A stretch of DNA of 64,000 bases from Candidatus Bathyarchaeota archaeon (GCA_003601775.1 PIYN01000001.1:27758-91757); one strand, 5' to 3'; positions 1-21,345 are shown, numbered from the stretch's first letter. Notes: a model not told the origin generated them from the sequence alone. Made by a program: numbers and translations.

Positions 1-198
1 CCTCATGCCGACCTCCCAACCCCTCCAGGACCTCCCACCGCATCACCACGACGATCATAGACCCATACCCTACCTGGCATCGAACTGATATAGGGTTTGC
101 CTGAGATGAAGGAGGCCTTCCACCGAGAAGATCGTCGAGGGACACCTCTCAGGTCATCGCGATAATTTTATCTGGGGTCCCCTCCCCCTTTAGTTGAG

Positions 199-900
199 TT
201 GAGGCACTTGTCCCTTAGGGATGCTGGCTTGATGAGAGAGGTCGAGCGACTGGTCAGGCGTATTAGAGATCGGGAGTTGAGGGGGAAGGTAAGGGACCTG
301 CTGAGGAACCCTGAAGTTATACTTGAGGGCGACCGCCTGCCCCTGGAGGAGTGCCCAGGCGGGTCCTATGTCCACCACTCCTATCCTGGGGGCCTCCTCC
401 AGCACACCGTCTCCGTCGCTCGCATCGCCCTCCTCCTCTGCGACCTCGTCGAGGAGATCTACGGGGGCTCGGTCGACCGAGACACCGTCCTGGCCGGGGC
501 CCTCCTCCACGACCTGATGAAGTGCTACGTCTACAAGGTGGAGGGGGAGGGCTTCGCCTCGACGCCCCTCGGGGAGCGCATCGACCACCTCACCCTCCTC
601 GTTGCTGAGATGTACCGTCGAGGCTTCCCCCTGGAGGTCATCCACGCCGTCGTGGCCCATCACGGCGACAACAGCCCCCTCCCCCCGCGGACCCTGGAGG
701 CCCTCATCGTCTACATAGCCGACTATACAGACGCGGAGCTGAGCCGGAAGGTCCTGAGGGCCGCCGAGGGCTTAGTCCGCAGGGCGACACGAGAGGTTCC
801 AGGGAGGCTCTCCGCCGAGGAAGCACTACGTATCCTGAAGGTGAAGGAACGGGAGGGGTGGGAAGGGGTAAGGCGACTCCTGGAAGGGAGAGAAAGGTAA
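199..900 (+). CDS. HD-domain metal-dependent phosphohydrolase (true start possibly M12 at ~232)
   Basis: The translation carries HD-domain signature residues in the expected order: HHSYPGGLLQHT, LLHDLMK, HHG and YIADYTD. It is a 233-aa ORF with high-GC codon usage. Confidence 0.6.
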   Translation: MRHLSLRDAGLMREVERLVRRIRDRELRGKVRDLLRNPEVILEGDRLPLEECPGGSYVHHSYPGGLLQHTVSVARIALLLCDLVEEIYGGSVDRDTVLAGALLHDLMKCYVYKVEGEGFASTPLGERIDHLTLLVAEMYRRGFPLEVIHAVVAHHGDNSPLPPRTLEALIVYIADYTDAELSRKVLRAAEGLVRRATREVPGRLSAEEALRILKVKEREGWEGVRRLLEGRER

Positions 901-934
901 TTTAATAACCCTTGTGGCTATCTGTTATTGGGGC

Positions 935-1022
935 GCCGCGGTGCCAGAGTGGTTATTGGGCCAGACTCGAGATCTGGTGACCCTTTCGGGTCGCAGGGGT
1001 TCGAATCCTCTCCGCGGCGCCA
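935..1022 (+). tRNA. tRNA-Ser (anticodon CGA), class II with long variable arm, 3' CCA encoded
   Basis: Manual cloverleaf fold. Acceptor stem gccgcgg/ccgcggc with U8. D-stem ccag/ttgg with a GG-containing D-loop. Anticodon stem ccaga/tctgg with loop cuCGAga. A 17-nt variable arm carries its own gaccc/gggtc stem. T-stem agggg/cctct with loop TTCGAAT. Discriminator G followed by CCA. Confidence 0.75.
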
Positions 1023-1061
1023 ACAAAGGTTATCGAGAGTCAGACTCATCCATTTAGATAG

Positions 1062-2225
1062 TTATCTTCTTTCCTCTGGGGGTTTCACGTCCTTGAAGGT
1101 AAAGTAGAGCGTGAGGTCGTAGGCCGCCTTCAGGCCCCCGGCTATGGGGAAGGGGAGGGAGAGTCCAAGGAACTCCATGATGAAACCGGCGAGGCTGGGG
1201 CTGACCGCGAGTGTGAGGCTCCGCGGGAGGTTGATGATCCCGGCGACGCGGCTCCGTTCCTCCGGCTTCACGATGGCCATCACGTAGGACTGCCTCGTCG
1301 GCACGTCCATCTGCGATAGGAGGGCGCGGCTCAGGTAGAGGAGTATCGACGAGGCGAGGTTCGGCATGAAGGGTATCATCATCGTCATCATGTTCGCGGG
1401 GAGGTGGCTGAAGACCATGGTATTGATGAGGCCGATGCGCTCGGCAATGCGGGCGGCGAGGATGAAGGAGAGGGCCGAGAGGAGGCTGGAGGCGGAGAAG
1501 ATGACACCGATGACGTCCATCCCGAGGCCGAAACGGACGAAGAACCAGTAGGATACAAGGCTGGAGGTGATGAGACCTCCTCCGAAGGAGTCCATGCTGA
1601 ACAGCAGAGACAGCTTCAAAATGTTCCTCTTGGTCTCGGGCGATAGGGGAACTACTCGATCCTTCGCTACCACCTCCACCTCGGCCCTGCTGGATAGCTG
1701 GGAATACAGGATGAGGGCCCCGAGGTTGAGGAGGGCGTAGAGGCCGAACATCACCCTGTAGGAGGCGAGCTCTGAGAGGGAGAACCGGCTCTGGAGGAGG
1801 ACGACCATCCCCGTGAAGAGGGAGCCGCCCGAGGTGGCGAGATAGCTCAGGGTGCTCCTTATCGCGTACATCCTCGTCCTCTTCTCATCTGGGCAGGTCT
1901 GAGCCAGAATAACCCTCTCCAACATCTGGATGGGGCCGAAGCCCCCTCTGTACCCCATCGTGGAGATGATGGCCGTGGGGATGAGGATGGCTGGGTTCGA
2001 TATCCCCGCGAAGATCCCACCTGAGAGGGCGGCGATGAGCCCGAAGAGGACCAGCATCTTCCTCCGCCCGACCTGATCGGCGAGGAACCCCGCCACGAGG
2101 TTCAGGAAGGTCGAGAATAGGAGCCCCCCGGTCAACACGAGGCCTATCTGCCAGAGGGGCAGCCCTATGACGCTCAGGAAGACCGCGAAGAAGACGGAGA
2201 CGAAGCTGCTCGCGAAGGACTGCAA
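1062..2225 (-). CDS. MFS-type membrane transporter
   Basis: A 387-aa ORF that is hydrophobic throughout, with about 12 predicted TM segments, a conserved G-rich loop (GRR-like) and the 6+6 architecture typical of the major facilitator superfamily. Confidence 0.55.
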   Translation of the reverse strand: MQSFASSFVSVFFAVFLSVIGLPLWQIGLVLTGGLLFSTFLNLVAGFLADQVGRRKMLVLFGLIAALSGGIFAGISNPAILIPTAIISTMGYRGGFGPIQMLERVILAQTCPDEKRTRMYAIRSTLSYLATSGGSLFTGMVVLLQSRFSLSELASYRVMFGLYALLNLGALILYSQLSSRAEVEVVAKDRVVPLSPETKRNILKLSLLFSMDSFGGGLITSSLVSYWFFVRFGLGMDVIGVIFSASSLLSALSFILAARIAERIGLINTMVFSHLPANMMTMMIPFMPNLASSILLYLSRALLSQMDVPTRQSYVMAIVKPEERSRVAGIINLPRSLTLAVSPSLAGFIMEFLGLSLPFPIAGGLKAAYDLTLYFTFKDVKPPEERR

Positions 2226-2406
2226 GGGCCTAACGGCGAGGAGGGAGCTTCCCCTCCCTCGAGAGCCAATCCATCAGCAAGGGCTTACATAGCTCCTGTA
2301 TAGAAACTCGCGGTCGTATGGGGCATATAACCTTTATTTCCCCATCTAACCCCTGTTCACCGCCCTCCATGGAAGGGGTAGAAAAAGGCTTTTAATCCGA
2401 TTAGAT

Positions 2407-3450
2407 GTGATCTTCTTGGAGGTTATTCTGATGCCTGAGGTAATTGAGGTTGGAGATGTAGCCGCGAAGAGAGGGGAGTTGAAGAAGGGTATCATCAAGG
2501 GCGTCGAGCTCGTCAATAACGTGAGTATAGATATACCCGTCCTCGTGATGAATGGGGTTAAGGAGGGCCCGACCCTCCTCCTCATGTCGACTCAGCACGG
2601 CATAGAGATCCAGGGCATCGAGGTCATCAGGAGGGTGATGAGGGAGGAGGTCCGTCCGGAAGGCCTCAGGGGGGCGATCATCGGGATACCCGTGGGGAAC
2701 CCCCTCGCCTTCATGCACCACCAGTACCTCTCTTGGATCGATAACCTGGACGTGGGGCGGGTGAGGGCTGACAACCCGAGGGGGAACACGACGGAGAGGC
2801 TGGCCCACGCCCTCTGGACGGAGGCATGGAGCAAGGCGGACCTCATCGTCAACCTACACTGTAACACGAGGCCCGACTCCCTCATCTACCAGTGGATCAA
2901 CGTGGGGAACCCCAAGACGAGGGAGAAGCTGGAGAAGATGGCCGAGGCCTTCGGCGTCACCACCATCGTCTCCGACACGCCGGTCGCCGAGGATGCGCCC
3001 CCGACCCTGGGAAACCTCGCCGCGAGGAAGGGGATCCCGGTCCTCCTCGCGGAGTTGATAGATGGGAGGTGGATCTCGGAGCCCTCCACGAGCGCCGGCG
3101 TCAGGGGGGTCCTCAATATCATGAAGGTCTTCGATATGATCGATGGTGAGCCGGAGCCCCAGAGGGGCTTCCCTATCGTCCCCGGCGTCAACAGGTTCTA
3201 CGGAATCATCAGGGCTAACAGGGGAGGCCTGATACGCTTCTTCAAGAAGCCGGGCGAGTTCATAAAGCAGGGGGAGGTTCTCGCGGAGATCTACGACCTC
3301 TACGGCGACGTCATCGAGGAGGTGAGGATGCCCGTCGACGGCTACGTCTGGGCCTACCCCTGCGGCCAGTCCCTCGGCACCTCCGGTAGCCTACAGGCCG
3401 TCCAGACGGGGGCCAACATCGCCTACGCCTTCACGCATGAGAAGGACTAA
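2407..3450 (+). CDS. succinylglutamate desuccinylase/aspartoacylase (AstE/AspA, M14-like Zn hydrolase) family protein
   Basis: Contains TQHGIEIQG (the HGxE metal-binding motif of the family) and a later LHCN motif. It is about 340 aa, which is typical for this family. Confidence 0.5.
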   Translation: MIFLEVILMPEVIEVGDVAAKRGELKKGIIKGVELVNNVSIDIPVLVMNGVKEGPTLLLMSTQHGIEIQGIEVIRRVMREEVRPEGLRGAIIGIPVGNPLAFMHHQYLSWIDNLDVGRVRADNPRGNTTERLAHALWTEAWSKADLIVNLHCNTRPDSLIYQWINVGNPKTREKLEKMAEAFGVTTIVSDTPVAEDAPPTLGNLAARKGIPVLLAELIDGRWISEPSTSAGVRGVLNIMKVFDMIDGEPEPQRGFPIVPGVNRFYGIIRANRGGLIRFFKKPGEFIKQGEVLAEIYDLYGDVIEEVRMPVDGYVWAYPCGQSLGTSGSLQAVQTGANIAYAFTHEKD

Positions 3451-3510
3451 CGTTCCCCTTCTCCCTTTTTATCCCGTTGGGTCTTCCTACCCCGGATAAG
3501 ATCTATCTTA

Positions 3511-4260
3511 GTGGTCTCTCGGACTCATCTATTTGAGCAAAAGGATTTTTACTATGATACCGATCCCAAGGTTATGGCAGAGGGTCTGCAAGAGACTAAA
3601 AGATCTGGGGTAGTCGCCCTATTCTTGGGATTTTTAAATCTGGCAGCCTTCTCTTTCCTCTCCTACCTTGAACTTCCGCTATTGCGGTTCATTTTTCCCA
3701 TCCTATTCCTCTGGGTCCTGCCCTTTCTCATCTCCTATAGGGTTGAGGGGAGAGATGCGAGCGCCTTAGGTTTAAGCCTTAGATCGGAGAGGTTCTCCCT
3801 TTACCTTCTTTATACCCTCCTTGGCTTTATCCTCACGACGCTTCTCTTATGCATGGAGTTTCACCTCAGGATCTGCTTCGCAGGGGAACCCCTTGGCGAG
3901 GTCCTTAGGGTAGAGGAGGATCTTGTCACGGGGCTGCTTTTCCAGATTGGGGGTATCGGCCTGCCTGAGGAGGTCTTCTTTAGAGGGTTTTTGATGGGGA
4001 GACTTTGTAATTGGCTGGGAGAGGAGGAAGGGTTAGTTCTGAGTAGTCTCCTCTTTGGCATGGGGCATGTAACGTCCAGGCTCTGCCAGATCGGACTGGA
4101 CTACGCCCTCTCAGCGACCATAATCGGCGTATACGCCTCCCTAAACGGTCTGATATTCGGTTATCAGTATCTGAAGACGGGGAGTGTGCTCCCCTCCGCG
4201 GCAACTCATATCTCCCTTAACCTCTTCGGCGCACGGATCGTTAATGCTATCCTTCTCTGA
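3511..4260 (+). CDS. CPBP-family (CAAX-protease-like) intramembrane metalloprotease
   Basis: Multi-TM protein carrying the CPBP motifs EEVFFRGFL (EExxxR) and FGMGH (FxxxH), followed by a later conserved His. Confidence 0.6.
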   Translation: MVSRTHLFEQKDFYYDTDPKVMAEGLQETKRSGVVALFLGFLNLAAFSFLSYLELPLLRFIFPILFLWVLPFLISYRVEGRDASALGLSLRSERFSLYLLYTLLGFILTTLLLCMEFHLRICFAGEPLGEVLRVEEDLVTGLLFQIGGIGLPEEVFFRGFLMGRLCNWLGEEEGLVLSSLLFGMGHVTSRLCQIGLDYALSATIIGVYASLNGLIFGYQYLKTGSVLPSAATHISLNLFGARIVNAILL

Positions 4261-8826: not shown

Positions 8827-10185
8827 TCAACAATCTTCTAAGTCGGCCCCCTCAACCATTAGAGGGTTGCTGGATGTAAGGGATCGGACCACGAGGGGAG
8901 CGACGGTGATGTGGCCGGTCTTCTCCGTTCGGTACCACCCCTCCTCCAGGTTCCCATCCTCGAGGATAAGCCCCCTTATGCTGGCCAGGGCCAGGAAGGG
9001 AGCCGTCGCGGTGAAGGTGAGCGGGAAGAGCACCAGCCCCAGGAGGTTCTCCCTGACCCCCCCAGCGACCCAGGAGGCCGTGAGACCCATGGAGAGGGGT
9101 GCGAGGAGGTCGAAGAGGAAGAGGAGGAGGCCGAGTCTCGTGGACAGGGGGCCGGAGGGGGTGGGGTCGGCTATCAAGGTGCACCCCACGCCCAACAGGA
9201 AGAGGACGGATTGGAGGTAGAAGAGGGAGAGGAGGAGGAACTCCATCTTCTGCCTCAGGGTCATCAGGGGGGAGGTCAGCACCCGTTTGAAGTAGTTCCT
9301 CGCCACACGTATATGACCCTCTGCCCACCTCATCTGCTGCCTGATGTAGTCCCGCAGGGTGCTCGGGCACTCGGCCAGGACCCTGAGCCTCGGGTCGTAG
9401 ACGATCTCATAGCCCTCTAAGTAGAGGCGGAGGGTGAGGTCCCAGTCCTCCGTGAGGCAGTTGGTCGAGAAGCCGAGTCTCCGTATCACCTCCGTCCTGA
9501 GGATCATCGCCCCCCCTGTCAACTGCTTCAGGGTATCGAGGAGGCTCCTCGCGTAGAAATCGACGAGGTACCCACTTATCGTCGAGACCCTGACGACCCG
9601 GGTCACTGGGGTCTCATCCCAGTTCAGGACATGATCCTGGTAGCCCTGGACGGCTGCGACCCTGTCATCCTCGAAGTGCTCCAGGCCTCTCTGAAGGATG
9701 TCGGGCGGCGGGATGAAGTCGGCATCGAGGAAGAGGACGAAGCGGCTCTCAGGGCTGAGGTGCCTGAGGCCCTCGTTGAGGGCACCTCCCTTGAAGCCCT
9801 CCCTCCGATCCCTGTGGATCACCCTCACCCTGGGATGCCTCGCCCACCTCTTGATCCTCCTGAGGGACTCGGGGTCCGTGGAGTCGTCGACGACGATGAT
9901 CTCGTACTCCGGGTAGTCGATGGAGGTGCAGGCCCTGAGGAGCCTATCCACGACCCTTGCCTCGTTGTAGATGGGGAGGATTATGCTGACGAGCCCCCTA
10001 TAGTCGTCGCCTCCCCCCCTCTCAGGGGGCCTCCCCCCGAGTAGCGTGACGAGGGCGTAGAGGTAATACCGCGCCGCGTAGATGGTGAAGGAGATGCAGA
10101 TGAGGAGGCTTAGGATGGTCGGGACCCAGCCGAGGTTCAGCGTCTCCCCTCCCCCCTGGGGGTCGCCAAGGCGAAGAGGAGGCAG
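8827..10185 (-). CDS. GT2-family glycosyltransferase with C-terminal multi-TM domain (cellulose-synthase-like architecture). The open frame extends upstream of the annotated GTG at 9951 to 10185 without a canonical start.
   Basis: The track ORF starts at a GTG (9951), but the same frame stays open for another 78 codons. Those codons encode a TM helix and the GT2 core motif GLVSIILPIYNE. The core also has IIVVDDSTD and DADF(I) DxD-like motifs, and a QxxRW-like QQMRWAEG motif. At least four C-terminal TM helices follow. Confidence 0.6.
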   Translation of the reverse strand: MPPLRLGDPQGGGETLNLGWVPTILSLLICISFTIYAARYYLYALVTLLGGRPPERGGGDDYRGLVSIILPIYNEARVVDRLLRACTSIDYPEYEIIVVDDSTDPESLRRIKRWARHPRVRVIHRDRREGFKGGALNEGLRHLSPESRFVLFLDADFIPPPDILQRGLEHFEDDRVAAVQGYQDHVLNWDETPVTRVVRVSTISGYLVDFYARSLLDTLKQLTGGAMILRTEVIRRLGFSTNCLTEDWDLTLRLYLEGYEIVYDPRLRVLAECPSTLRDYIRQQMRWAEGHIRVARNYFKRVLTSPLMTLRQKMEFLLLSLFYLQSVLFLLGVGCTLIADPTPSGPLSTRLGLLLFLFDLLAPLSMGLTASWVAGGVRENLLGLVLFPLTFTATAPFLALASIRGLILEDGNLEEGWYRTEKTGHITVAPLVVRSLTSSNPLMVEGADLEDC

Positions 10186-11558
10186 TTAAACATGAAGGGC
10201 CCGCAGGTCAGGACCTCGAAGCCGTGTTCCTCCAAGAGACACGCCAACTCAGCCCTGGTGAAGGTGGAGTGGTTCGCCTCCAGCTCCCTCCTCCTTAAAT
10301 TCGTCCATACGGCCTCAACGAGGCCCCAGAGCTTCCCCCTCCTCGGCGTCGTTATCACCAGGAGGCCTCCAGGCCTCAGGAGCCTGCGGAACTGTTCGAG
10401 GGCCTCCCCCGCCTCCCTCTTGAAGTGCTCCAAGACCTCTGAGCAGATGATGGCGTCGAAGGAGGCCTCCGCGAAGGGGAGGCTCCGTGCATCCCCCATT
10501 AGGTAACTTGGCTTGATGGAGTTTATATGTCTCCTCCTCCCCTGGCACCAACGTAGGAAACCCTCCCCGATATCCACCCCGTAGACCTCGTACCCCTCCT
10601 CACCCAGTCTCTCCGTTAAGACCCCTGACCCACACCCGACGTCCAAGACCCTCCTCACACCCCTCCCATATCTCCTCAACGCCTCAAGTATCTGCCCGTT
10701 CTTATGTCGATGCCAGAACCTCCTCGGGAGGAAGAGGCTCCTGGACGCCCTGTAGTATACGTCTCCCGGGAGGGAGTCATAGAACCTCTTCAACTCCCCC
10801 TCATCCTCAAGCGTCCTCCCCCTCCTCTTCGACTCCAGCCATATCCTCACGAGGTCCATCCCCATCTCGAGGGCCTCCCTCCAGGCCCTGACCTTCGACC
10901 CGTCGACGTGGGACCACTCCACGGGCACCTCGACGATCCTGTATCCCCTCATCCAGGCCTTGACGACGAGCTCCGTGTCGAAGGCGAAGCCGTCGGTATC
11001 AACATCGTAGACCAGGTCCAAGAGGACCTCCCTCCTGAAGGCCTTAAAGCCGCACTGGACGTCCCTGACCCCGATTTTGGGGAAGAGGACTTCGAAGAGT
11101 GCTTGGTAGACCCCGCTGAGAAGGGCCCTGTGGATGGGCTGGCCGTTCTTAATCCTCGAATTTGGGAGTCTCCTTGAGCCGAGGGCGATATCGGCACCCC
11201 TCAGGATCGCCTCGGTGAGTCTCTTGATGTAGGGTGGCTCGACGGCGAGGTCCGCGTCCATGAGGATGACGATGTCGTTCTCCGACCTGAGGAGGCCGTG
11301 CTTTATACCGCCCCCCTTCCCCATCTTCTCTGGGAAGTGTACGATCTTCACCCTTCCGTCTCTCTCAGCATATCTCCTCGCGATCTCCAAGGTCCCATCG
11401 GTGCTCCCATCCTCCGCGATGATGACCTCGGCCTTAACCCCTTCCTCCCCGTCGAGGAAGGATAGGACCTTCTCCAGGCAGTCGGAGAGGCGCCTCCCCT
11501 CGTTGTGGGCTGGGATGATGATGGACCAAGTCCCCTTCTGCTTCAACTGTAGCAACAA
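10137..11558 (-). CDS. bifunctional GT2 glycosyltransferase (DPM1-like) / class I SAM-dependent methyltransferase fusion
   Basis: The N-terminal half has GT2 motifs WSIIIPAHNEG, AEDGSTDGT and DADL. The C-terminal half has the SAM-binding motif LDVGCGSGVL and a Methyltransf_11-like core. Confidence 0.7.
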   Translation of the reverse strand: MLLQLKQKGTWSIIIPAHNEGRRLSDCLEKVLSFLDGEEGVKAEVIIAEDGSTDGTLEIARRYAERDGRVKIVHFPEKMGKGGGIKHGLLRSENDIVILMDADLAVEPPYIKRLTEAILRGADIALGSRRLPNSRIKNGQPIHRALLSGVYQALFEVLFPKIGVRDVQCGFKAFRREVLLDLVYDVDTDGFAFDTELVVKAWMRGYRIVEVPVEWSHVDGSKVRAWREALEMGMDLVRIWLESKRRGRTLEDEGELKRFYDSLPGDVYYRASRSLFLPRRFWHRHKNGQILEALRRYGRGVRRVLDVGCGSGVLTERLGEEGYEVYGVDIGEGFLRWCQGRRRHINSIKPSYLMGDARSLPFAEASFDAIICSEVLEHFKREAGEALEQFRRLLRPGGLLVITTPRRGKLWGLVEAVWTNLRRRELEANHSTFTRAELACLLEEHGFEVLTCGPFMFNCLLFALATPRGEGRR

Positions 11559-11750: not shown

Positions 11751-14700
11751 ATGACGAGGACATCTACATACCTTCTCCTACTTTTGATGCTATCAGCAGC
11801 GATGCTACAGCCGATGGCTCTTCCGACGATCGCCCAGTCCCCAACCACCGGGACCATCCAAGGAGTCGTCTATGACCGCGTCACCGGCGAACCCATAGCG
11901 AATGCGAGGGTGGAGTTACGCCTCTCAAACGAATCTTGGACGTGGTTCAACGATACTTGGACCAACGCTGATGGGGAGTACTCCTTCGAGGTCCCGCCTG
12001 GGACCTATCATATCGTGGCGGATAAGTGGCCCAACTACACCGTGCCTCAGGTTGAGAAGTTTGTCGAGGTTGAGGCGGGGTCAACGGTCTCCGTCGACCT
12101 CTTCCTCTGGCCTACGGGCCGGGTCAACGGAACTGTGGCGTATGAGGGCATGACCTCGGAACAAGGCGCCGACGTGCTCTTCGTGAACGCGACCTCGGGA
12201 AATGTCGTGGCGAGGAAGTACGCTGGAGTCTGGGATGGAGGGTACATCCTGGACGTGCCCGTGGGGGACTACGACATCCTCGCCTTCGGCTGGGGCTATG
12301 GCCCCGGGCGGATGACCGACGAGATCTCCACCATCTCCGTCCTCAAGGGCGAGGAGACCCCCGTGGATATAGACCTCCGGGACTCGGGGATGGAGGTCTG
12401 GGTCCATACCCATGGGTGGAGGTGGGAGTACATGCCAGGGGCGTCGATGACCTGCATCGTGGAGGTCCAGAACACCACGACCTGGGAGCCGATCTCCAAC
12501 GCCTCCATCGTCCTCTACTTATTCGGCCCCGTCGATTGGCCCCACAGTGAGCCCTTCACCTACAGCGCAAGCTTCGACGACCTGGTGGAGGTGGAGCCGG
12601 GTAAGTATATCGCCAGGCTGGAGGTCCCATCTGACCTCTCCCCGGGGCAGTACAACATCTTCGCGGCAGTCAGGGAGGGAGGGCGGCTGGGTCTGGGGGA
12701 GATGTGGCTCTCCATCATCCAGTACAGGCTGGAGTGGTGCCACGCGAAGTCGGTCTACTCCCCCTCCGAGGAACTCTCCTTCAGGTTCACCGTCGACGAC
12801 GGCTCGGAGTACGTCACGGACTTGGAGATCTCCTACGCCATAGTGGAGCAGTTCAACGGGACCGAGTGGGTTCATAATGTCCTTGAGACCGGGAAGGCGA
12901 CCTATAATGAGGAGCTGAAGGAGTACGAGGTCACGGCGGAGGGCGTCACTGTCGTCGAGGGACACAAGTATAGGCTCTCCCTCTCCGTCGGCCAGAACAC
13001 CTACGACTGGTGGTTCGAGGCAGGCGACACGCCGGTGGTCCTGAAGGCTCTCTCCGAGTACCCGGTTCACATAGAACTCGGGATCAGGGACTACCCACCC
13101 TTCGTCTTCACCTGCGACAGGAAGGTCGTCATCATCGACGAGGAGGCCTACTACACGAAGATGCGGCTCCCCATCGCTGATGTAGACTGGATCCACCTCT
13201 ACTACGACAACGTATCGACGCCAGCGATGGACATCTTCGAGAGCTGGGAGATGGGACCCAACGCCACAGCCCTAATCGACCTTAACGACACCTTCGTATC
13301 CTTCACCACGGTCCCTGCCGGCGAGATCAGGGGCGTCATCAGGGACGATGAGACCGGTGAGCCGCTGGGGGACGTCGAGGTGCTGGGGATACCCATCAAG
13401 TACGGCGAAGCCGCGAGGTGGGCCTACGCCCGATCAGACTGGGATGGCTCCTACAGGCTCCCGGTCGTGGCGGGGAGGGCCTACCTCCTGAGGTTCTCCT
13501 CCGCCCTCTACGAGGTCTACAAGACGGATAACGAGACCCATGGCTATCGGGTGATGGAGCCCGGGGCGGTGGCGACGGTCGATGTGAACCTGACGAAGGT
13601 GCCGACGGGCGTCCTGACGGGCGTCGTCTTCTGGGACGTCGACGTGGACGGGGTCTACAACAGCTCCATAGATAAGCCCCTCTCCGACGTCTGGATCGGC
13701 TTCCACGACTACTCCTGGAACTGGCTCGGTGGCGTCACCACGGCGGCGAACGGGAGGTACACCTTCACGGTGAGGGCTGACACCTTCCTCCGCATCACGG
13801 CTTGGCTGAATGAGACCTTCCGCTCGAGGCCCATCGAGGGAGTCTCGGTCGCGGAGGGGGAGACGCTGAGACTCGATATACCGCTGGAACGGGCGATCAT
13901 CATCAGGGGCCGGATCGAGGGACCCGGGTGGGTCGACTGTCTACTCCTCGACGGGGACTATAATATCGTGGATAGGATCGGCGAGGGCGGTGGGTGGGAC
14001 TTCCAGTGGAGCGTCCCCGCCTCCGTGGAGACCCTCCTCTTCCGGACCTGGGGGGACTACTACCCGACAGAGGTGTCGCTCCCCAAGGTGAAGACGGAGG
14101 AGGAGTACGACATAGGAGTCATCGAGATGAACGCCACGACCCTGGACACCTGGTCCTACATGAAGGACTGGGACGAGGAACGTCAGCCAGGGGAGTCCGT
14201 CCTCTTCTACGTCGAGGCGGTGAACCGGTCGAGCTGGTCCGATAGGAGCGTGGAGGGGCTGGAGGTCAGCTACATGCTCTGGGACTCGACGGGGCGGTTC
14301 CTCGGCAGCGGCACGGGCGTCTACAAGGACGGGCGATACTTGGTGAATGTCTCCATCCCGCTGGAGGCGAAGCCGGGGCCGATCGAGCTGATCTTCATGG
14401 CGGAGAACGCCTCTCTCAACTACTACGGGGTATGCGGCGGATGGTTCCACATCACGACGCTGAAGATCGTGACCCTGAAGGAGGCGACGCCCTACTCGAC
14501 GGAGGAGTCACCGACCTTCGCCTGGCTCGTCCTCAACGCCTCCAAGCTCCCCGCCAAGGACGTCCACCTCGAGTACGAGGTCTACTCGACCTCTGGCGCC
14601 TGGGAGCAGATAGCCGCTGGGGACATCAGGGGGAGCCCGACCGGCGTCTACAATATCACCCTCCCACCCCAGGAGGAGGGAGGCTACCAGCTCCACGTCG

Positions 14701-17336
14701 TCTTCGACAAGCAGCTTGACCGATGGATATGGTTTGACGTCCTGGAGAACCTAACGAAGGTGAAGGTCTATGGACACGTCACGGACAAGGACGGCAGGCC
14801 CGTGAAGATGGCGGTGGTGGACCTCAGCGGGGGGTTGGAGGACCCCACGGGGAGATATCCGGGGGGCTACTGGGTCCACTACGTCACCATGACGAACGCC
14901 TCCGGCTACTATGAGGCCTTCATCCCCAAGGGAGGCTATGGGGTACACGTGACGAAGGGCTCGATGAGGACGCTCCCTGAGTGGCTCTGGATCGAGGTGC
15001 CTCCAAGGGTCTTCGACTTCACCCTCTACCAAGTCGGCTTCCTGGAGGGGAGGGTCATCGACCCGCCTCTGGGACAGGAGCCTGAACCAAGTCCTGAGGG
15101 GCCGATCTGGGTCGCGGTGACGATCAACGCGACTCTGACCTGGACGAACCTCTGGGACGCCTCCACGCCAGATCAGCACCTACCACCCTCCGGCACGACC
15201 TCCTACCTACCCGGAGTGGAGGTGGGAGACGAGGCCAACTACACCATCATGGTCTTCTTCGAGTCCAACGATCCCTCCGTCATCGAGGAGATGAAGAACC
15301 CGCCGGAGAACGAGACCGGTAGGATGCCGATGAATGGGACGATCACCGTCACGGTCCTCGAGGTCGACGGGAGCAACGTCACCCTCCTCTTCAGGAACTA
15401 CGACGAGAATGACGCCCTCAGGGAGGAGTACCTCTACTGGATCGACGTCGAGACGGGGGACACGATGGAGGAAGGGGAGGGGCCACCTCTCCTGATAGCG
15501 GCGAACCTCACCGCCGGAGACCACCTCTTCAACTTCTCAGAGGCACCGGTGATAGAGGAGACCATCGAGAGGCTGGTGACGGGCAAGTGGAGACTGGCTA
15601 ATCTACTCCACCAGAACGCCACAGAGGAGACACGCCTCCTCCTATGGGACAGGACAACGGGGATCCTCATCGAGGCGACCATATTCTCCAACGAGACCCT
15701 CACCCAGGAGCCGGGACCAGAACCCGGACCAGGACCCGAGCCTGAACCTGGACCAGAGCCGGGACCGGAGCCGGTTCCCGAGGGCGGAGGATACGAGATA
15801 GGGGCACAGGTGCTCTTCTGGAACTCTACCACGGGGAAGTTGGTCACCATGGAGTGGGTCTGGGGCTACTTCACGATCGCCGCCCCGACGGGTACCTACG
15901 ACCTCACCTTCGCGGACTGGGGGCTGATACCCCGGACGATCTACAACGTGACCATAGAGTCCGATGAGACGACGGACGTCGGCGACGTGAAGCTGTACCG
16001 GGTCGACCCGAGGTATGAGATGTGGACGGACTGCAGCCCCTGGCAGACGGTGCCGGGGAGGAACGTCACTATCGAGATCGATCTCTCCCAGAACAACTGG
16101 CAGCTCGAGTTATCGGAGAGCATAACGGGGCTGGTGGAGGAGAACTTCACCATCTACCTCATTGGGTGGAGGTGGCCCCAGCCCCCGACGGGATACGAGA
16201 AGGTACAGTTCGCCGTCGAGGAGGGCCCCGAGGGCGTCTATACCCTGAATATCACCATCCCGGAGGACGCTGAGGCGGGCTTCTGGGACGGGAGGGTCAT
16301 CGTCTCGACGGCTAACGGGACCTATCTGGTGAACTTCGGCTTCAACCTCGTCTCGCTCTACGTCGGCGCGACGCCACAGAAGCGCATCTTCGACCCAGGG
16401 GAGACCGTCTACCTCGTCACCATCGTGACGACACCAGACAACACCCAGGTCACGGGACTCGAGGACGTCGACTTCAGGATCCAGATCTTCGGACCCTACG
16501 GGGAGGTCTCAGGCAACTTCACATCAACCTTCTACGAACTGGGACACGGCGTCTACCTCATGGAGTTCTCCATCCCCAACGGGACGAAGCCCGGAGGATA
16601 CTCGATAGACGTGACGGTCACCGTCCCAGGCGTAGGCTCAGCCACAGACTGGCAGTGGTTCGAGATCGCGGGGAAGAAGGAGGAATACGGGCCCGGACCG
16701 GGTCCCGAGCCAGGTCCAGGACCGGCGCCTCCACCGCCACCTCCGCCTGAGGAGGAGAGGCCCCTCTTCGTGGTCGCGGCCAACCTAACTGAGGGTGACA
16801 CGCTCTTCGATGTCACCGAGGCCCCTGTCATCGACGAAACTCTCGAGGAGTTCTTCGCTGGGACGACCCGGCTGGTCAACTACCTCTACAAGGATGATAT
16901 CACCCCGGATGTGGAGGAGCATCTGACGGTGGGCTGGGATCGATCCACAGGACTGTTGTGCATAGTGGTCCATGAGGTCAACAAGACGAGTCCCGAGGGC
17001 AACACCTACATCTCCACCACCTTAACCCTGACCTGGACAAGCCTCTGGAACGAGACCACGCCACCCCAGAGCCTACCGGCGACCGGTGAGACAGAGTACC
17101 TCCCCGGCGTCTATGTAGGGGCCGAGGCTGAGTACAACTTCACGGTGTACTGGGAGTCGACGGACCCCTACTTCGTCTACGAGGGACCGGCGAATGGTAC
17201 GATAAGCCTGGAGATAACAGATGTCTACGACTCCACCGTCAAGATACATGTCACACAATACGAGGAGGGCATGGACATGCCGGTACGAGACGAGGAGTTC
17301 AACATCGATCTAACAACTGGCGAGATCTTCTATTAA
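11751..17336 (+). CDS. giant secreted cell-surface glycoprotein (1861 aa) with signal peptide, many N-glycosylation sequons, Pro/Glu-rich linkers and an internally duplicated, permuted C-terminal domain pair
   Basis: The N-terminus is a signal peptide (MTRTSTYLLLLLMLSAAMLQPMALPTIAQS). There are dozens of N-x-S/T sequons. Two PGPEPGPGPEPEPGPEP linkers occur at ~15708-15777 and ~16689-16748. Domain pair A1-B1 (15131-15700) recurs as B2-A2 (16762-17333). No C-terminal TM anchor. Confidence 0.7.
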   Translation: MTRTSTYLLLLLMLSAAMLQPMALPTIAQSPTTGTIQGVVYDRVTGEPIANARVELRLSNESWTWFNDTWTNADGEYSFEVPPGTYHIVADKWPNYTVPQVEKFVEVEAGSTVSVDLFLWPTGRVNGTVAYEGMTSEQGADVLFVNATSGNVVARKYAGVWDGGYILDVPVGDYDILAFGWGYGPGRMTDEISTISVLKGEETPVDIDLRDSGMEVWVHTHGWRWEYMPGASMTCIVEVQNTTTWEPISNASIVLYLFGPVDWPHSEPFTYSASFDDLVEVEPGKYIARLEVPSDLSPGQYNIFAAVREGGRLGLGEMWLSIIQYRLEWCHAKSVYSPSEELSFRFTVDDGSEYVTDLEISYAIVEQFNGTEWVHNVLETGKATYNEELKEYEVTAEGVTVVEGHKYRLSLSVGQNTYDWWFEAGDTPVVLKALSEYPVHIELGIRDYPPFVFTCDRKVVIIDEEAYYTKMRLPIADVDWIHLYYDNVSTPAMDIFESWEMGPNATALIDLNDTFVSFTTVPAGEIRGVIRDDETGEPLGDVEVLGIPIKYGEAARWAYARSDWDGSYRLPVVAGRAYLLRFSSALYEVYKTDNETHGYRVMEPGAVATVDVNLTKVPTGVLTGVVFWDVDVDGVYNSSIDKPLSDVWIGFHDYSWNWLGGVTTAANGRYTFTVRADTFLRITAWLNETFRSRPIEGVSVAEGETLRLDIPLERAIIIRGRIEGPGWVDCLLLDGDYNIVDRIGEGGGWDFQWSVPASVETLLFRTWGDYYPTEVSLPKVKTEEEYDIGVIEMNATTLDTWSYMKDWDEERQPGESVLFYVEAVNRSSWSDRSVEGLEVSYMLWDSTGRFLGSGTGVYKDGRYLVNVSIPLEAKPGPIELIFMAENASLNYYGVCGGWFHITTLKIVTLKEATPYSTEESPTFAWLVLNASKLPAKDVHLEYEVYSTSGAWEQIAAGDIRGSPTGVYNITLPPQEEGGYQLHVVFDKQLDRWIWFDVLENLTKVKVYGHVTDKDGRPVKMAVVDLSGGLEDPTGRYPGGYWVHYVTMTNASGYYEAFIPKGGYGVHVTKGSMRTLPEWLWIEVPPRVFDFTLYQVGFLEGRVIDPPLGQEPEPSPEGPIWVAVTINATLTWTNLWDASTPDQHLPPSGTTSYLPGVEVGDEANYTIMVFFESNDPSVIEEMKNPPENETGRMPMNGTITVTVLEVDGSNVTLLFRNYDENDALREEYLYWIDVETGDTMEEGEGPPLLIAANLTAGDHLFNFSEAPVIEETIERLVTGKWRLANLLHQNATEETRLLLWDRTTGILIEATIFSNETLTQEPGPEPGPGPEPEPGPEPGPEPVPEGGGYEIGAQVLFWNSTTGKLVTMEWVWGYFTIAAPTGTYDLTFADWGLIPRTIYNVTIESDETTDVGDVKLYRVDPRYEMWTDCSPWQTVPGRNVTIEIDLSQNNWQLELSESITGLVEENFTIYLIGWRWPQPPTGYEKVQFAVEEGPEGVYTLNITIPEDAEAGFWDGRVIVSTANGTYLVNFGFNLVSLYVGATPQKRIFDPGETVYLVTIVTTPDNTQVTGLEDVDFRIQIFGPYGEVSGNFTSTFYELGHGVYLMEFSIPNGTKPGGYSIDVTVTVPGVGSATDWQWFEIAGKKEEYGPGPGPEPGPGPAPPPPPPPEEERPLFVVAANLTEGDTLFDVTEAPVIDETLEEFFAGTTRLVNYLYKDDITPDVEEHLTVGWDRSTGLLCIVVHEVNKTSPEGNTYISTTLTLTWTSLWNETTPPQSLPATGETEYLPGVYVGAEAEYNFTVYWESTDPYFVYEGPANGTISLEITDVYDSTVKIHVTQYEEGMDMPVRDEEFNIDLTTGEIFY
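15708..15777 (+). repeat. low-complexity Pro-Glu/Pro-Gly coding repeat (linker 1) inside giant glycoprotein gene
   Basis: The protein sequence here is EPGPEPGPGPEPEPGPEPGPEPVPE. The nucleotide string ccgggaccagaacccggaccaggacccgagcctgaacctggaccagagccgggaccggagccg is imperfectly repeated. Confidence 0.7.
16689..16748 (+). repeat. low-complexity Pro-Glu/Pro-Gly/poly-Pro coding repeat (linker 2) inside giant glycoprotein gene
   Basis: The protein sequence is GPGPGPEPGPGPAPPPPPPPEEE. It is a second copy of the linker type at 15708, placed before the duplicated domain pair. Confidence 0.7.
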
Positions 17337-19518
17337 ACCCCTTTCCCCCTTTTTCTGTCCCTTTAACCCTTCTTCTAAGAGTAATCGACCTCCTTCTTAG
17401 TAGATACACTCCCACAGTGACTATTGTGATGAGGGAGACGATATCCCCGCAGGCCTCGGGCGGGGTCCTCGTGAAGATGAGCTCCACCTCCGAGAGGCCT
17501 TGGGGAACCTCGACGGCCATCAGCCCGTTCGGCGTCCTGATCACCGGCGACCATCTCCCATTCACCTTTGCGCGCCACCCTGGGAAGAAGGACTCCTTGA
17601 CCGTGAGGAAGTACCTCCCAGTGGAGGAGGTGGAGTGGACGTTGACGCGGCACCTCATCCTCTCCTCCGAGAACCTCTCCACCGTGACCTCGCACCCCAC
17701 GGCCCCCGAAGTGACGTCCTCAGCTCCGTCGAGGACTTCGAAGAAGGGCCTGGCCTCGGGGTTCCTCAGGACATAGACCCCCCCGAAGCGGCGTTCGATG
17801 ACCGTCCCCTCGTACCTCGAGGCGTTCCTGGTCACGATGTACTTCACAGAGAGGAAGTCAGTCACATTGAGCGGCAGCCCCGATGTGAGTTCCCCAAGGG
17901 CGTGGAACATCAGGTTCGACCCGACGGGCTTCCAGTCGTAGTAGGGCCCGTCGAGGAGGAGGGGATGATGGCCCTCAGATAGGATCGTGTAGTAAGGCGC
18001 CTCCGAGCACCAGACTCGGTACAGGCCCCCCTGCCCGCTCACCCATCTCAGCGCGGCGTCCACATCTCCATCAAGGTGGAGGCCCTCCTCCCATCTGACG
18101 GCCCCGGTGTAGGGGTGCATATCCACCAGGAGGGCGAGGAGCAGGAGGAGGAAGAGGAGACGGCTCAGCCCAGGCCTATCCTCCAATCGTCTATGGAGGG
18201 CTCTCACCGTATATCCGGCGAGGAGGCTTGAGATGAAGGCGAGGAGGGTGAGGAGGCGCCAGGGGAACTGGAGGGGGCTGAGGATGGTCGAGATGGGGGG
18301 GACGTAGACCGGGCGGATGAGCGGTCGGGCGAGAGTTGTGGGCAGGAAGAGGAGGAGGACCCCGGTTGTGTAGAGGGAGAGGAACTCGATGTCTCGCTTC
18401 TCCACGAGGATGAAGGAGGAGAAGGCCGTGAAGAGGATGAGATTCCCCAGGTATAGGGGGAGCCGGGGGGACTCCAGGGGGAACTGGCTCATGGACCACT
18501 GGACCCTTCTCAGGAGCTGAAGGGGGGAGACGAAGTGGTTTAGGAGGCAGAAGTAGCCGGAGAACCCGTAGGCGGAGATGGTGGCATGCCTCAGCTCCAG
18601 GAGGGCGGGGAGGAGGAAGAAGGCTGAGGAGGCGAGGGCGACGGAGAGGAAGTTCCCAAGGACCTTAAGGGTCCAGAAGGTGTCATCGATATCGAATCCT
18701 CCTGTTAAAAGGCGCTTAAGGACCATCGTTATTGCTACGTAGAGGATGAGCCAGAGGATCTCGAGGAGGCCGATTAGGACGTGGGTCAGGATGAGGAGGG
18801 CGAGGAGGAGGCCCCCGAGGACCGACCTTCGATGGTCCCCCTTCCTCAAGGACTCCCTGAGCAGGAGGTAGATGGGGGGGAGCCAGATGAAGGAGGCTGT
18901 CTCCGTCAGGTCTCCGCGGATGAGGGCGTCGAGGAGGTGGTAGCCGAAGAGGGTGTAGCAGAGGGAGGCGTAGGAGGCGGCGGGGCGGTCGCCCAGAACC
19001 GAGAGGGCGACCCAGTACATGAGGACCGCGGAGAGGAAGAAGGAGAGGGCGAGGACCACCTTCACCATCCCCACACCTCTCAGCAGGGGGATGAGGGCTG
19101 AGAGCCAGGGGACGAGGGGCGAGTAGAACCTCAGGCAGGGAACGCCGCACCAGATCTCATGTATCCACCTGGGGGGTCTCCCAAGGGACCATGTTAGGTG
19201 CCTGAGGAGGGGGAGGAAACCCAGGGAGTTCCCCGTGAGGTCGTGGGTCCACATGATCCCCTCCCTGAAGAGGGAGTTCACAGCGAAGAGGGAGGAGAAC
19301 CCGGCGACGAGGAGACTGGCGGGGAGTCTCCACGCCCTTATCGGCTCAGTAGCCCGGCTGGTCCAGGCGAGGTAGAGGACCGTGGCGACGAGGAGGGAGG
19401 GGCGGAGGGGGAGGAGGGGGGGAATGGCGACCGGCTCCGTTGAGGAGAGGAGGGAGAGGAGTAGCACCAGCAGGGTTGCGGAGATGAAGACCAAGGCCAC
19501 GCGGCTGGGGCTCCTCAA
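17299..19518 (-). CDS. polytopic integral membrane protein, GT-C-fold/YfhO-like architecture (putative glycosyltransferase or envelope assembly protein)
   Basis: 739 aa. About 13 N-terminal TM helices are followed by a soluble extracytoplasmic domain and a final C-terminal TM helix with an RRR tail. This is the YfhO/GT-C layout. I found no WWDYG motif, so it is probably not AglB. Its 3' end overlaps the giant gene's 3' end. Confidence 0.45.
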   Translation of the reverse strand: MRSPSRVALVFISATLLVLLLSLLSSTEPVAIPPLLPLRPSLLVATVLYLAWTSRATEPIRAWRLPASLLVAGFSSLFAVNSLFREGIMWTHDLTGNSLGFLPLLRHLTWSLGRPPRWIHEIWCGVPCLRFYSPLVPWLSALIPLLRGVGMVKVVLALSFFLSAVLMYWVALSVLGDRPAASYASLCYTLFGYHLLDALIRGDLTETASFIWLPPIYLLLRESLRKGDHRRSVLGGLLLALLILTHVLIGLLEILWLILYVAITMVLKRLLTGGFDIDDTFWTLKVLGNFLSVALASSAFFLLPALLELRHATISAYGFSGYFCLLNHFVSPLQLLRRVQWSMSQFPLESPRLPLYLGNLILFTAFSSFILVEKRDIEFLSLYTTGVLLLFLPTTLARPLIRPVYVPPISTILSPLQFPWRLLTLLAFISSLLAGYTVRALHRRLEDRPGLSRLLFLLLLLALLVDMHPYTGAVRWEEGLHLDGDVDAALRWVSGQGGLYRVWCSEAPYYTILSEGHHPLLLDGPYYDWKPVGSNLMFHALGELTSGLPLNVTDFLSVKYIVTRNASRYEGTVIERRFGGVYVLRNPEARPFFEVLDGAEDVTSGAVGCEVTVERFSEERMRCRVNVHSTSSTGRYFLTVKESFFPGWRAKVNGRWSPVIRTPNGLMAVEVPQGLSEVELIFTRTPPEACGDIVSLITIVTVGVYLLRRRSITLRRRVKGTEKGGKGFNRRSRQLLDRC

Positions 19519-19599: not shown

Positions 19600-21345
19600 A
19601 TGGATTCTGCGCGTAGAACCCCTCTGAAGATAAGGGGATCCGATATGCGTCGATTCCCCAGAAGGACCTCTTTGATGATCCTCCTGTTTCTCCTCCTGCA
19701 GGTCTTCCCATGGACCATATCGGCGGAGTCCTCCGAGGTCCTCTCGGTGAACGAGATCCAGGTCCCCGAGCTCCTTGTCAGGGGCCTCCCCAACACCATA
19801 CAGTTCAACATCACGAACAACTCCCAGGCGTCTCAGAACTGCACGATACGTCTCACTCTGACCCTCCTCCACGAATGGAACGTCACCGTTCAGCCTGGTG
19901 TCAACCTCTTCAACCTCACCCTCATCCCCCCCGAGGACACCGAGGTCGGGCCAAGGGAGCTCGAGGCCGAGGTCTGGTGCGGGGGGCAACTGATACACGA
20001 TGAGAATCGCTCTGTGAGGGTTGTGGGGCGCCTCCTCCCCACCGTCCGGTTCTCCCCTGGCAGCACCCTCATTCAGGGTCAGACGCTCTCCATCTCAGTC
20101 GAGGTGAGGGACGAGCTGGGGAACAGGGTGGGGAACGCGACGATCTCGGCCGAGGTGTGCGGCAGGGTCTATAACTTCACGGAGAGCCAGCCCGGCTTCC
20201 AGTCCAGCGGACCCCTGGACACGAGCCTCTTCCCCACGGGAAACCTGACGGTCAAGCTGACGATCGAACAGGAGAACTACAGCCGCTACCTGGGGCTCTA
20301 CCCCCTGAGGGTCATGAGGACCCTCCTCCTCGACGACCATAACCAGTTCCCCTCCACCCTCAGACAGGGCGAGCCCACGACGATAAGGATCGATCTAATT
20401 GACGGGTATAGTGGAGAGGTGGTCCCCGGGGGCTATATCTCCCTGACGATCGGGGGGACGACCTTCCCCTTCACCGAGTCAGGGAGCGGCTCCTACACAG
20501 CAACCGTCAACATCACCCTCCCCCTGGGCTCCTATATAGCCGAGGTCAGGGGCTCAAGAGAGGGCTATGTGGACGCCGTGAGGAGCTACGAGGTGGAGGT
20601 CTACGGAAGCCTCGAGATGAGGCTCATGGACCCGGAGGCAGGGGGAAGGGTCATCCTCCTCCAGGGCACCCCCCTCATCGTGATTGTTAACATCACGACG
20701 ACACTGGGTGAGGGGCTCGAGGACGCGTCGCTCTCCGCCTGGATAGGGGATGAGCGCTTCCCCGGGGACCACCTCTCCGGCAGCCTCTACACCGTCGCCA
20801 TCGACACCTCCCCCTTCATGGGGACTTGGAAGGTCACCATCTCCGCCACCCACAGCCGCTGCGTGAACACAGCCACCGGGTCCATCACACTGACGGTCAT
20901 ACCCACCGTCTTGGAGACCGCCAACTCCACCATCCGCTCCATAAAGTCCCAGGGCTACAACGTCTCCCTGGCGGAGAGGACCCTGGAGACGGCCTACGCC
21001 TGCGCCCTCGACGGCGACGCCGCCTCCGCCCTCCAGTACTCCACGGCCGCCGTCACCCTCGCCCAGGGGTCGATGAGGGCGACAGACGCCATAGCCCAGG
21101 CCCGTAGGGCCGTCGAGGAGGCGAGGAGGGAGGGGAGGACGATCGGCCTGAAGAAGGCTCAGACCCTCCTCTCCTCAGCAGAGGAGTACTATACCCTTGG
21201 CCAGTACTCCATGGCCGAGAACTACGCGTTGAGGGCGAGGAAAGCCGCTGAGGTGGCCCTCTCCCCCCATCTGATCGTCATCTCAGTCCTCGCGTTCCTC
21301 ACGGTCGCTGCAGGGTTGTTCTTCCTCAGGTGGAGGAGGCGATAG
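19600..21345 (+). CDS. secreted surface (S-layer-like) glycoprotein with C-terminal TM anchor; real start probably the Met at ~19645
   Basis: Signal peptide (MRRFPRRTSLMILLFLLLQVFPWTISA). Many N-x-S/T sequons, e.g. NITNNSQASQNCT and NVTVQPGVNLFNLT. A predicted beta-rich ectodomain is followed by a helical stalk and a C-terminal TM helix plus basic tail (LIVISVLAFLTVAAGLFFLRWRRR). This end is typical of archaeal surface proteins. Confidence 0.55.
   Translation: MDSARRTPLKIRGSDMRRFPRRTSLMILLFLLLQVFPWTISAESSEVLSVNEIQVPELLVRGLPNTIQFNITNNSQASQNCTIRLTLTLLHEWNVTVQPGVNLFNLTLIPPEDTEVGPRELEAEVWCGGQLIHDENRSVRVVGRLLPTVRFSPGSTLIQGQTLSISVEVRDELGNRVGNATISAEVCGRVYNFTESQPGFQSSGPLDTSLFPTGNLTVKLTIEQENYSRYLGLYPLRVMRTLLLDDHNQFPSTLRQGEPTTIRIDLIDGYSGEVVPGGYISLTIGGTTFPFTESGSGSYTATVNITLPLGSYIAEVRGSREGYVDAVRSYEVEVYGSLEMRLMDPEAGGRVILLQGTPLIVIVNITTTLGEGLEDASLSAWIGDERFPGDHLSGSLYTVAIDTSPFMGTWKVTISATHSRCVNTATGSITLTVIPTVLETANSTIRSIKSQGYNVSLAERTLETAYACALDGDAASALQYSTAAVTLAQGSMRATDAIAQARRAVEEARREGRTIGLKKAQTLLSSAEEYYTLGQYSMAENYALRARKAAEVALSPHLIVISVLAFLTVAAGLFFLRWRRR

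Follow-up and report, generated by a model that had tools for sequence, protein, structure and literature searches.

Two circularly permuted copies of one extracellular domain, as predicted in a giant surface protein of a Candidatus Bathyarchaeota archaeon

The giant gene and its two domain copies

A 64,000-nt stretch of DNA from a Candidatus Bathyarchaeota archaeon (GCA_003601775.1, PIYN01000001.1:27758-91757), here called the window, encodes a giant protein of 1,861 amino acids (aa). An earlier note on this DNA had described in the protein a segment A1 followed by B1, which recurs at the C-terminus in the order B2 and A2, and had read the arrangement as a duplicated domain pair. In our analysis, the segments appear instead to be halves of one domain, present as an internal copy (copy 1) in the order s2-A-B-s1 and a C-terminal copy (copy 2) in the order B-s1-s2-A, where s1 and s2 are strands of the domain's tail. 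Both orders depart from that of the family to which the domain belongs (A-B-s1-s2, hereafter canonical). The gene has the following features, in window coordinates.

11751..17336, + strand: giant open reading frame (ORF), 1,861 aa, with an N-terminal signal peptide, a CarboxypepD_reg / MG2-type immunoglobulin-like (Ig-like) stalk and two copies of an uncharacterised domain
15057..15098, + strand: short spacer L0 (IDPPLGQEPEPSPE), upstream of copy 1; DNA repeat family D1
15099..15155, + strand: copy 1 strand s2 (GPIWVAVTINATLTWTNLW), last strand in the canonical family and first here; placed with the rotated hidden Markov model (HMM) test
15156..15209, + strand: copy 1 s2-to-A connection (DASTPDQHLPPSGTTSYL), counterpart of the tandem-domain junction; 100% conserved in ortholog P0147
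15210..15479, + strand: copy 1 half A (PGVEVGDEANY ... WIDVETG), from blastp, HMM and Smith-Waterman
15480..15698, + strand: copy 1 half B and strand s1 (AANLTAGD ... LWDRTTGILIEATIFSNET); the chain exits the domain in the s1/s2 hairpin loop
15699..15797, + strand: spacer L1, a long PGPEP run downstream of copy 1; 12-nt tandem repeat
15798..16688, + strand: conserved Ig-like block between the copies, with a CarboxypepD_reg-like and an MG2-like domain (aa 1544-1621); 71-78% identical in orthologs
16689..16754, + strand: spacer L2 (GPGPGPEPGPGPAPPPPPPPEE), upstream of copy 2
16755..16985, + strand: copy 2 half B and strand s1 (AANLTEGD ... GWDRSTGLLCIVVHEVNK), from blastp and HMM
16986..17048, + strand: copy 2 s1/s2 loop and strand s2 (TSPEGNTYISTTLTLTWTSLW); the loop retains the family P-E-G motif
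17049..17102, + strand: copy 2 s2-to-A connection (NETTPPQSLPATGETEYL), site of the only residual DNA similarity to copy 1
17103..17333, + strand: copy 2 half A (PGVYVGAEAEY ... NIDLTTGEIFY), up to the protein's end

The start of the duplicated region had been given as 15131. The internal copy begins at about 15099, and spacer L0 upstream of it lies outside the interval then proposed. A PGPEP linker had also been described before each copy; spacers do precede both copies, but there are three Pro/Glu/Gly spacers rather than two, and the long PGPEP run lies downstream of copy 1.

Similarity and swapped order of the segments

The peptides quoted in the earlier note were all found at the places it gave, and the similarity of A1 to A2 and of B1 to B2, in reversed order, was confirmed. 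A self-alignment without significant similarity between these pairs had been named as the outcome that would speak against it. In blastp, A1 and A2 were 37% identical over 106 aa (E = 2e-16) and B1 and B2 46% identical over 71 aa (E = 7e-20); A-versus-B comparisons gave no match. Smith-Waterman scores were judged against 2,000 composition-preserving shuffles. The pair of s2+A segments scored 202 (shuffles: 32 ± 6, z = 26.8) and the B pair 144 (shuffles: 24 ± 5, z = 25.8), whereas the cross-controls A1-versus-B2 (z = −0.4) and B1-versus-A2 (z = 0.2) equalled the shuffles. The dot-plot of the protein against itself, as had been proposed, showed both pairs as the strongest off-diagonal signals in a windowed comparison. 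They lay on different diagonals (+631 and +426), and their order is therefore swapped.

The giant protein is compositionally biased, being acidic, with many N-x-T sequons and repetitive spacers, and similarity between Pro/Glu-rich or sequon-rich stretches could in principle arise by chance or composition. However, the z-scores of 26-27 were obtained against shuffles that keep the composition, the cross-controls were near zero, and the same segments are matched by 148 proteins of an independent family; this explanation has practically no chance of being correct and can be regarded as already refuted. A and B both end in D-x-x-T-G and were also considered as related repeats of a pseudo-symmetric fold, an idea we rejected because A-versus-B scores did not differ from those of shuffles.

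A family of ~190-residue extracellular domains

A search for the modules in other genomes had been suggested in addition, and it returned 148 family proteins. A phmmer search over 1.84 billion cluster representatives gave 67 proteins, in most of which A and B were matched as one unbroken stretch, and a profile search added 81 more. All named proteins among these additions were "hypothetical protein" of Candidatus Bathyarchaeota or Bathyarchaeia. A word-indexed homolog search with A1B1 found nothing. The order A-B-s1-s2 occurred in 126 of the 148 proteins, 117 with a single canonical domain and nine with two full canonical copies in tandem (e.g. P0005, P0006 and P0030). The order B then A was restricted in this census to the giant proteins and the fragment P0002. 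Typical family members are small and have a signal peptide, the domain directly after it and often a membrane anchor at the C-terminus; in others, dockerin, PKD, MG2 or PQQ-propeller partners occur.

In canonical domains, half A reads PGV-x-x-GDWAKY ... NGT ... D-V-x-T-G and half B reads IAANLtAGD ... INxT ... AG-x-x-REVN ... WDRxTG. In the tail, strands s1 and s2 are joined by a loop that carries a P-E/D-G-Y motif, and s2 ends in ETNIW. Both window copies retained PGV, G-D, Y, NGT, D-x-x-T-G, ANL-x-x-GD, G-x-x-R-x-x-N, WD-x-x-G and N-x-W. Three sequons (NGT, ANLT and INxT) were nearly invariant across the family, and in both window copies the Asn of INxT was replaced by Glu or Asp.

Neither Pfam-A nor NCBIfam had a hit on the two copies (aa 1117-1316 and 1669-1861), and no Pfam entry covered the domain in 10 full-length family proteins or in 40 aligned domain sequences. 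A profile search of the PDB with the family profile returned no solved structure (best match E = 0.99). The domain is probably rich in beta strands. Many archaeal surface proteins, most of them from Bathyarchaeia, contain the domain, which has neither a curated family nor a structure; it could be given a family entry of its own and be targeted for structure determination. Six family members (P0005, P0006, P0008, P0011, P0073 and P0100) shared a second unannotated module of ~110 aa at the C-terminus, without a Pfam hit. Its consensus (…LNLKSRGKWIT…ELPEGY…DVD-SSI-LNGT…VKFDR…TLT-TG-L-DGT-F-GSD-I) is common in many canonical family members, and the module may be another uncurated archaeal surface domain.

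Covariation between the halves was analysed with mean-field direct coupling analysis (DCA) on 136 canonical domains. Couplings connected A and B (e.g. 54-131, 10-113 and 51-153). The strongest antiparallel ladder of the map joined model positions 11-17, the first strand of A, to 189-183, in s2; it ranked between 1 and 19 of 15,576 windows in eight out of eight 70% subsamples. A second ladder was consistent with an s1/s2 hairpin. Since A and B are contiguous in 126 of the 148 proteins and their halves covary, we regard them, on the strength of these alignments, as two halves of one ~190-residue extracellular domain and not as two domains. The terms "domain pair" and "domain swapping" in the earlier note thus do not describe the arrangement. 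The couplings further suggest that the N- and C-termini of the canonical domain are close neighbours, with the first strand of A pairing antiparallel to s2. Permutations would be tolerated because of this predicted adjacency.

Permuted frames of the two copies

The canonical HMM matched copy 1 from position 3 to about 165-166, with the tail missing (116.5 bits), and matched copy 2 only as a split hit, from 91 to 196 and then from 4 to 69 (75.2 + 27.7 bits). In a rotated-HMM test, the columns of the family alignment were rotated to model the two alternative frames. Copy 1 then gave a single hit on the s2-A-B-s1 model (positions 7-188 of 191, 123.2 bits), and copy 2 a single hit on the B-s1-s2-A model (109.0 bits). 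Canonical control proteins scored best on the canonical model. Every element was present once per copy, and all nearly invariant residues were kept except the INxT Asn. Both copies should therefore fold to the same shape, and both appear to be circularly permuted relative to the family norm. Copy 1 would have been cut in the s1/s2 hairpin loop, with both of its ends running into Pro/Glu/Gly spacers, and copy 2 in the variable loop between A and B. As the chain would enter and leave copy 1 through the opened s1/s2 loop, the domain would branch sideways from the Ig-like stalk.

Copy 2 carries s2, an 18-residue connection and then PGV, the same layout as in tandem proteins, in which TNIW is followed by ~10 aa and PGV. 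The s2-to-A connection of both copies is thus the counterpart of a tandem junction and, as tandem arrays exist in the family, permutation by duplication is indicated. We consider it likely that the giant protein holds two paralogous, differently permuted copies of one extracellular domain that arose in this way.

Two other explanations of the B-s1-s2-A order were weighed against permutation by duplication. The segment could represent two half-domains that are completed by another chain or by copy 1 (three-dimensional domain swapping), so that it links a surface lattice or anchors the protein. The giant protein has no C-terminal anchor of its own, the segment follows a long spacer and forms the very end of the chain, and one ortholog manages without it, as expected for an accessory assembly module. 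Yet every element occurs exactly once per copy, the predicted adjacency of the termini permits closure within the chain, and no observation calls for exchange between chains; such a swap seems improbable. Alternatively, A and B could each fold on its own and have been fused on two separate occasions, in opposite orders (fission and fusion). A-only entries (P0010, P0025 and P0137) and entries with only B plus the tail (P0013, P0031, P0044, P0135 and P0146) exist. Most of them, however, are short, with about 150-270 aa, and several (e.g. P0010 and P0013) begin or break off within the domain, so that they look like truncated gene calls. Apart from them, A and B always occur together and in one order, couplings join the two halves, and B is joined to A in copy 2 through s1, s2 and a tandem-type connection, exactly as permutation by duplication predicts. 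Because one-half proteins are found only as such short, truncated-looking entries, fission and fusion is the less likely course, and quite improbable overall.

Orthologs, age and origin of the copies

Three orthologs of the giant protein were found, in loci syntenic with that of the window.

P0147: 1,822 aa, 73% identity, both copies in the same frames
P0001: 1,602 aa, 69% identity, copy 1 only
P0148: 1,854 aa, 55% identity, both copies in the same frames

Copies 1 and 2 shared 40-44% identity, and each was closer to its ortholog than to its paralog (copy 1 versus its P0001 counterpart: 57-58%, copy 2 versus P0002: 45-56%). Their DNA retained one 159-nt stretch of similarity at 69% identity, besides the spacer repeats. 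In a neighbour-joining (NJ) tree of re-ordered domains, with bootstrap, the copies of the giant proteins formed one clade (94.5%), which was sister to P0003 and P0004 (96.5%). Intragenic duplication within the giant-protein lineage is the best reading of this tree, since the clades of the two copies are each other's closest relatives among all family members. P0003 and P0004 are both already s2-first, and this frame would hence predate the giant protein. P0004 was also examined as a duplication intermediate, but the B-tail-like match before its s2-A-B-s1 copy (10 bits, E = 0.0017) was too weak.

These observations bear on the claim of a recent intragenic duplication, of which the word intragenic is supported by the 94.5% clade and the word recent is not. 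The similarity of the segments and their swapped order are real, and the copies fall into one clade. Nevertheless, a recent duplication of a domain pair with swapped order is highly improbable: the copies are only 40-44% identical and each is nearer to its ortholog, DNA similarity is reduced to the 159-nt stretch, an ortholog with only 55% identity has kept the layout, and A and B are contiguous halves in 126 of the 148 family proteins.

Under permutation by duplication, the order of events may have been as follows. The canonical domain would first have formed head-to-tail tandem arrays, from which the s2-first frame would have arisen. A duplication inside the ancestor of the giant protein would have followed, and the new copy would have been trimmed to the B-first frame with new end points. 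The lineages, whose orthologs are now 55% identical, would then have diverged, and one would later have lost the C-terminal copy and its spacer. In the locus of P0001 (L003 10720-10947), on a 195-kb contig, a stop codon directly follows the Ig-like stalk, a T-rich stretch comes next, and the next gene is 139 nt away; spacer L2 is missing, and tblastn found no remnant of copy 2. As the copy is present in P0148, the most divergent ortholog, it is simpler to assume that the P0001 lineage lost it.

Divergence between orthologs and strains

The module had been described as rapidly evolving, and this agrees with the ortholog comparison for the most part. Relative to P0147, copy 1 was 53-59% and A2 61% identical, and the stalk 77-78%; the copies thus diverge faster than the Ig-like stalk, with the exception of B2 (79%). 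Copy 1 was in addition a hotspot between strains. For the strain comparison, the only near-identical public contig was used (L001; QNAP01000192.1, Guaymas, 3.8 kb), of which positions 1-3839 aligned to 12697-16499 of the window at about 98% nucleotide identity. The substitutions were concentrated in one tract.

15196..15774, + strand: strain-level divergence tract, with 44 of the 52 substitutions that distinguish L001 from the window; spans copy 1 and the downstream spacer

Nucleotide divergence was 7.6% in the tract and 0.25% elsewhere. The synonymous rate (dS) was 0.129 in the tract versus 0.007 in the flanks (about 18-fold) and the non-synonymous rate (dN) 0.050 versus 0.0013 (about 38-fold), with an omega of 0.38. 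The L1 spacer was 36 nt (12 codons) longer in L001, with the insertion point at 15743 (within 15707-15774), and spacer length also varied among the orthologs. The tract looks like an imported or recombined, or a long-maintained, divergent allele rather than the product of point-mutational positive selection. A mechanism like that of diversity-generating retroelements was considered for the hotspot and rejected: the 64-kb window held no second copy of the tract, many changes were synonymous, and the substitutions were spread over 579 nt. Among the genes near the locus that were scanned, none encoded a reverse transcriptase.

L001 is filed as "MAG: Thermotogae bacterium isolate B41_G15" (MAG, metagenome-assembled genome), although the housekeeping genes of the window are archaeal in type (topoisomerase I (topA_arch), NreA and WtpA/WtpC). 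The contig was probably mis-binned or its genome mis-named.

A speculative possibility, which we think doubtful, is that the internal copy acts as a plug-in, exchangeable cassette, for which the GAGCCGGGACC-type spacer repeats on both sides could supply recombination sites. With entry and exit of the chain in a single hairpin loop, such a cassette could be replaced while the stalk stays intact. The idea agrees with the 30-fold local excess of differences, both synonymous and non-synonymous, between two strains of 98% identity, and with the change in spacer length. If true, cassette exchange would be an archaeal counterpart of the allelic or antigenic variation of a surface adhesin tip, enabled by circular permutation. 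The optional C-terminal copy, the variable spacer length and the hotspot copy suggest how giant archaeal surface proteins may vary their exposed modules while the stalk is kept.

Predicted properties of the giant protein

CarboxypepD_reg-type domains were detected at about aa 35-117, 526-614, 1006-1074 and 1372-1415 of the giant protein, and an MG2-like domain at 1544-1621. The mature protein has a predicted isoelectric point (pI) of 4.25. It contains 45 N-x-S/T sequons, compared with 9.5 ± 2.9 in composition-matched shuffles, a 4.8-fold excess. The only hydrophobic stretch, aa 6-28, is the signal peptide, and no C-terminal membrane anchor, lipid anchor or PGF-CTERM signal was found in the protein. 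The product is probably a large, secreted, heavily N-glycosylated and acidic surface protein of 205 kDa, as judged from these sequence features.

An LPATG motif (aa 1775-1779, window 17073-17087) was rejected as a sortase LPXTG signal: it lies inside the domain, has no hydrophobic tail downstream and is not kept in P0147. This LPXTG-like motif belongs to the s2-to-A connection of copy 2; both P0148 copies have one too, and copy 1 has LPPSG (15177-15191). The occurrence is probably a coincidence.

The reading as a surface glycoprotein follows from the signal peptide, the sequon excess, the pI, the flanking glycosyltransferase genes and the partner domains of other family members. From this context we infer, as the weakest step of the argument, that the domain serves in binding or adhesion, as an exposed and N-glycosylated module carried on flexible spacers.

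Gene neighbourhood

The genes next to the giant gene are the following.

8827..11558, − strand: glycosyltransferase family 2 (GT2) gene and GT2-methyltransferase fusion gene, oriented divergently; syntenic in all four loci
17299..19518, − strand: gene for a 739-aa membrane protein with weak YfhO similarity, convergent; syntenic across the ortholog loci
19600..21345, + strand: unannotated 581-aa ORF without a Pfam match; the ~580-aa member of the conserved cluster

The 3' ends of the giant gene and the YfhO-like gene overlap by 38 nt (17299-17336), and the stop codon of the latter falls within the last 12 codons of the giant gene. Because of this overlap there is no intergenic space for a terminator between them. 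In the P0001 locus, where copy 2 is lacking, the two genes are 139 nt apart, compared with the overlap in the window. The cluster of GT2, GT2-methyltransferase fusion, YfhO-like multi-pass membrane protein and ~580-aa protein was kept in all four loci, and its products may serve specifically to glycosylate the giant protein.

Weight of the evidence

Several points weigh against two permuted paralogous copies of an adhesion-type domain, or against parts of that account. The placement of s2 ahead of copy 1 gains only about 7 bits, and the coupling map is thin, with only about 113 effective sequences. Two single-sequence AlphaFold models were unusable (pLDDT 38 and 41, a confidence measure), so the common fold of the copies is a prediction; a Foldseek search of the PDB with the better model returned only E-values of 0.29 and above, with TM-scores no higher than about 0.3, and was discarded as uninformative. 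In the NJ tree, the copy-2 clade had a bootstrap of 69.5%, and the position of P0148 copy 1 was not resolved. No family member is characterised, and the function of the module is predicted from context. The strain mosaic rests on one short metagenomic contig, which could be an assembly chimera.

Comparison with known systems

Circular permutation and its mechanism are already well known, and current ideas are not overturned by this locus, which adds a case in an undescribed family. With three frames of one domain (canonical, s2-first and B-first), two of them in a single polypeptide, it would be a rich natural example.

The giant protein resembles archaeal and bacterial surface-layer or giant surface glycoproteins made of CarboxypepD_reg / Ig-like domains (e.g. 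NCBIfam NF052345, the Kustd1514 family) in its signal peptide, its string of Ig-like domains, its dense sequons, its acidic pI and its neighbouring glycosyltransferase genes. Unlike members of NF052345, it matches the model only locally, with 43 bits against a cut-off of 1,400, and it lacks both a PGF-CTERM signal and a membrane anchor; such families do not contain the permuted domain. The window copies also differ from canonical Bathyarchaeia family members, in which A-B-s1-s2 comes right after the signal peptide, in being permuted and embedded in a protein of 1,861 aa.

The textbook case of permutation by duplication is saposin and swaposin, the plant-specific insert of plant aspartic proteases (PMC3320104). 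As with the window domain, the saposin family also occurs in tandem, the permuted version is inserted in a host protein, and its order is a slice of a tandem array. The saposin fold has four helices, whereas a mainly beta fold is predicted here, and the giant protein combines two permuted frames in one polypeptide, with the canonical frame in its relatives.

A second parallel is concanavalin A when compared with favin and other legume lectins. There, an extracellular beta domain of glycan-binding type differs from its relatives by circular permutation, which adjacent termini make possible, as is predicted for the window domain. In concanavalin A the permutation takes place after translation, through cleavage and ligation. 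Profile searches of the window domain found no lectin homology, and its permutation, in contrast to that of concanavalin A, lies in the gene.

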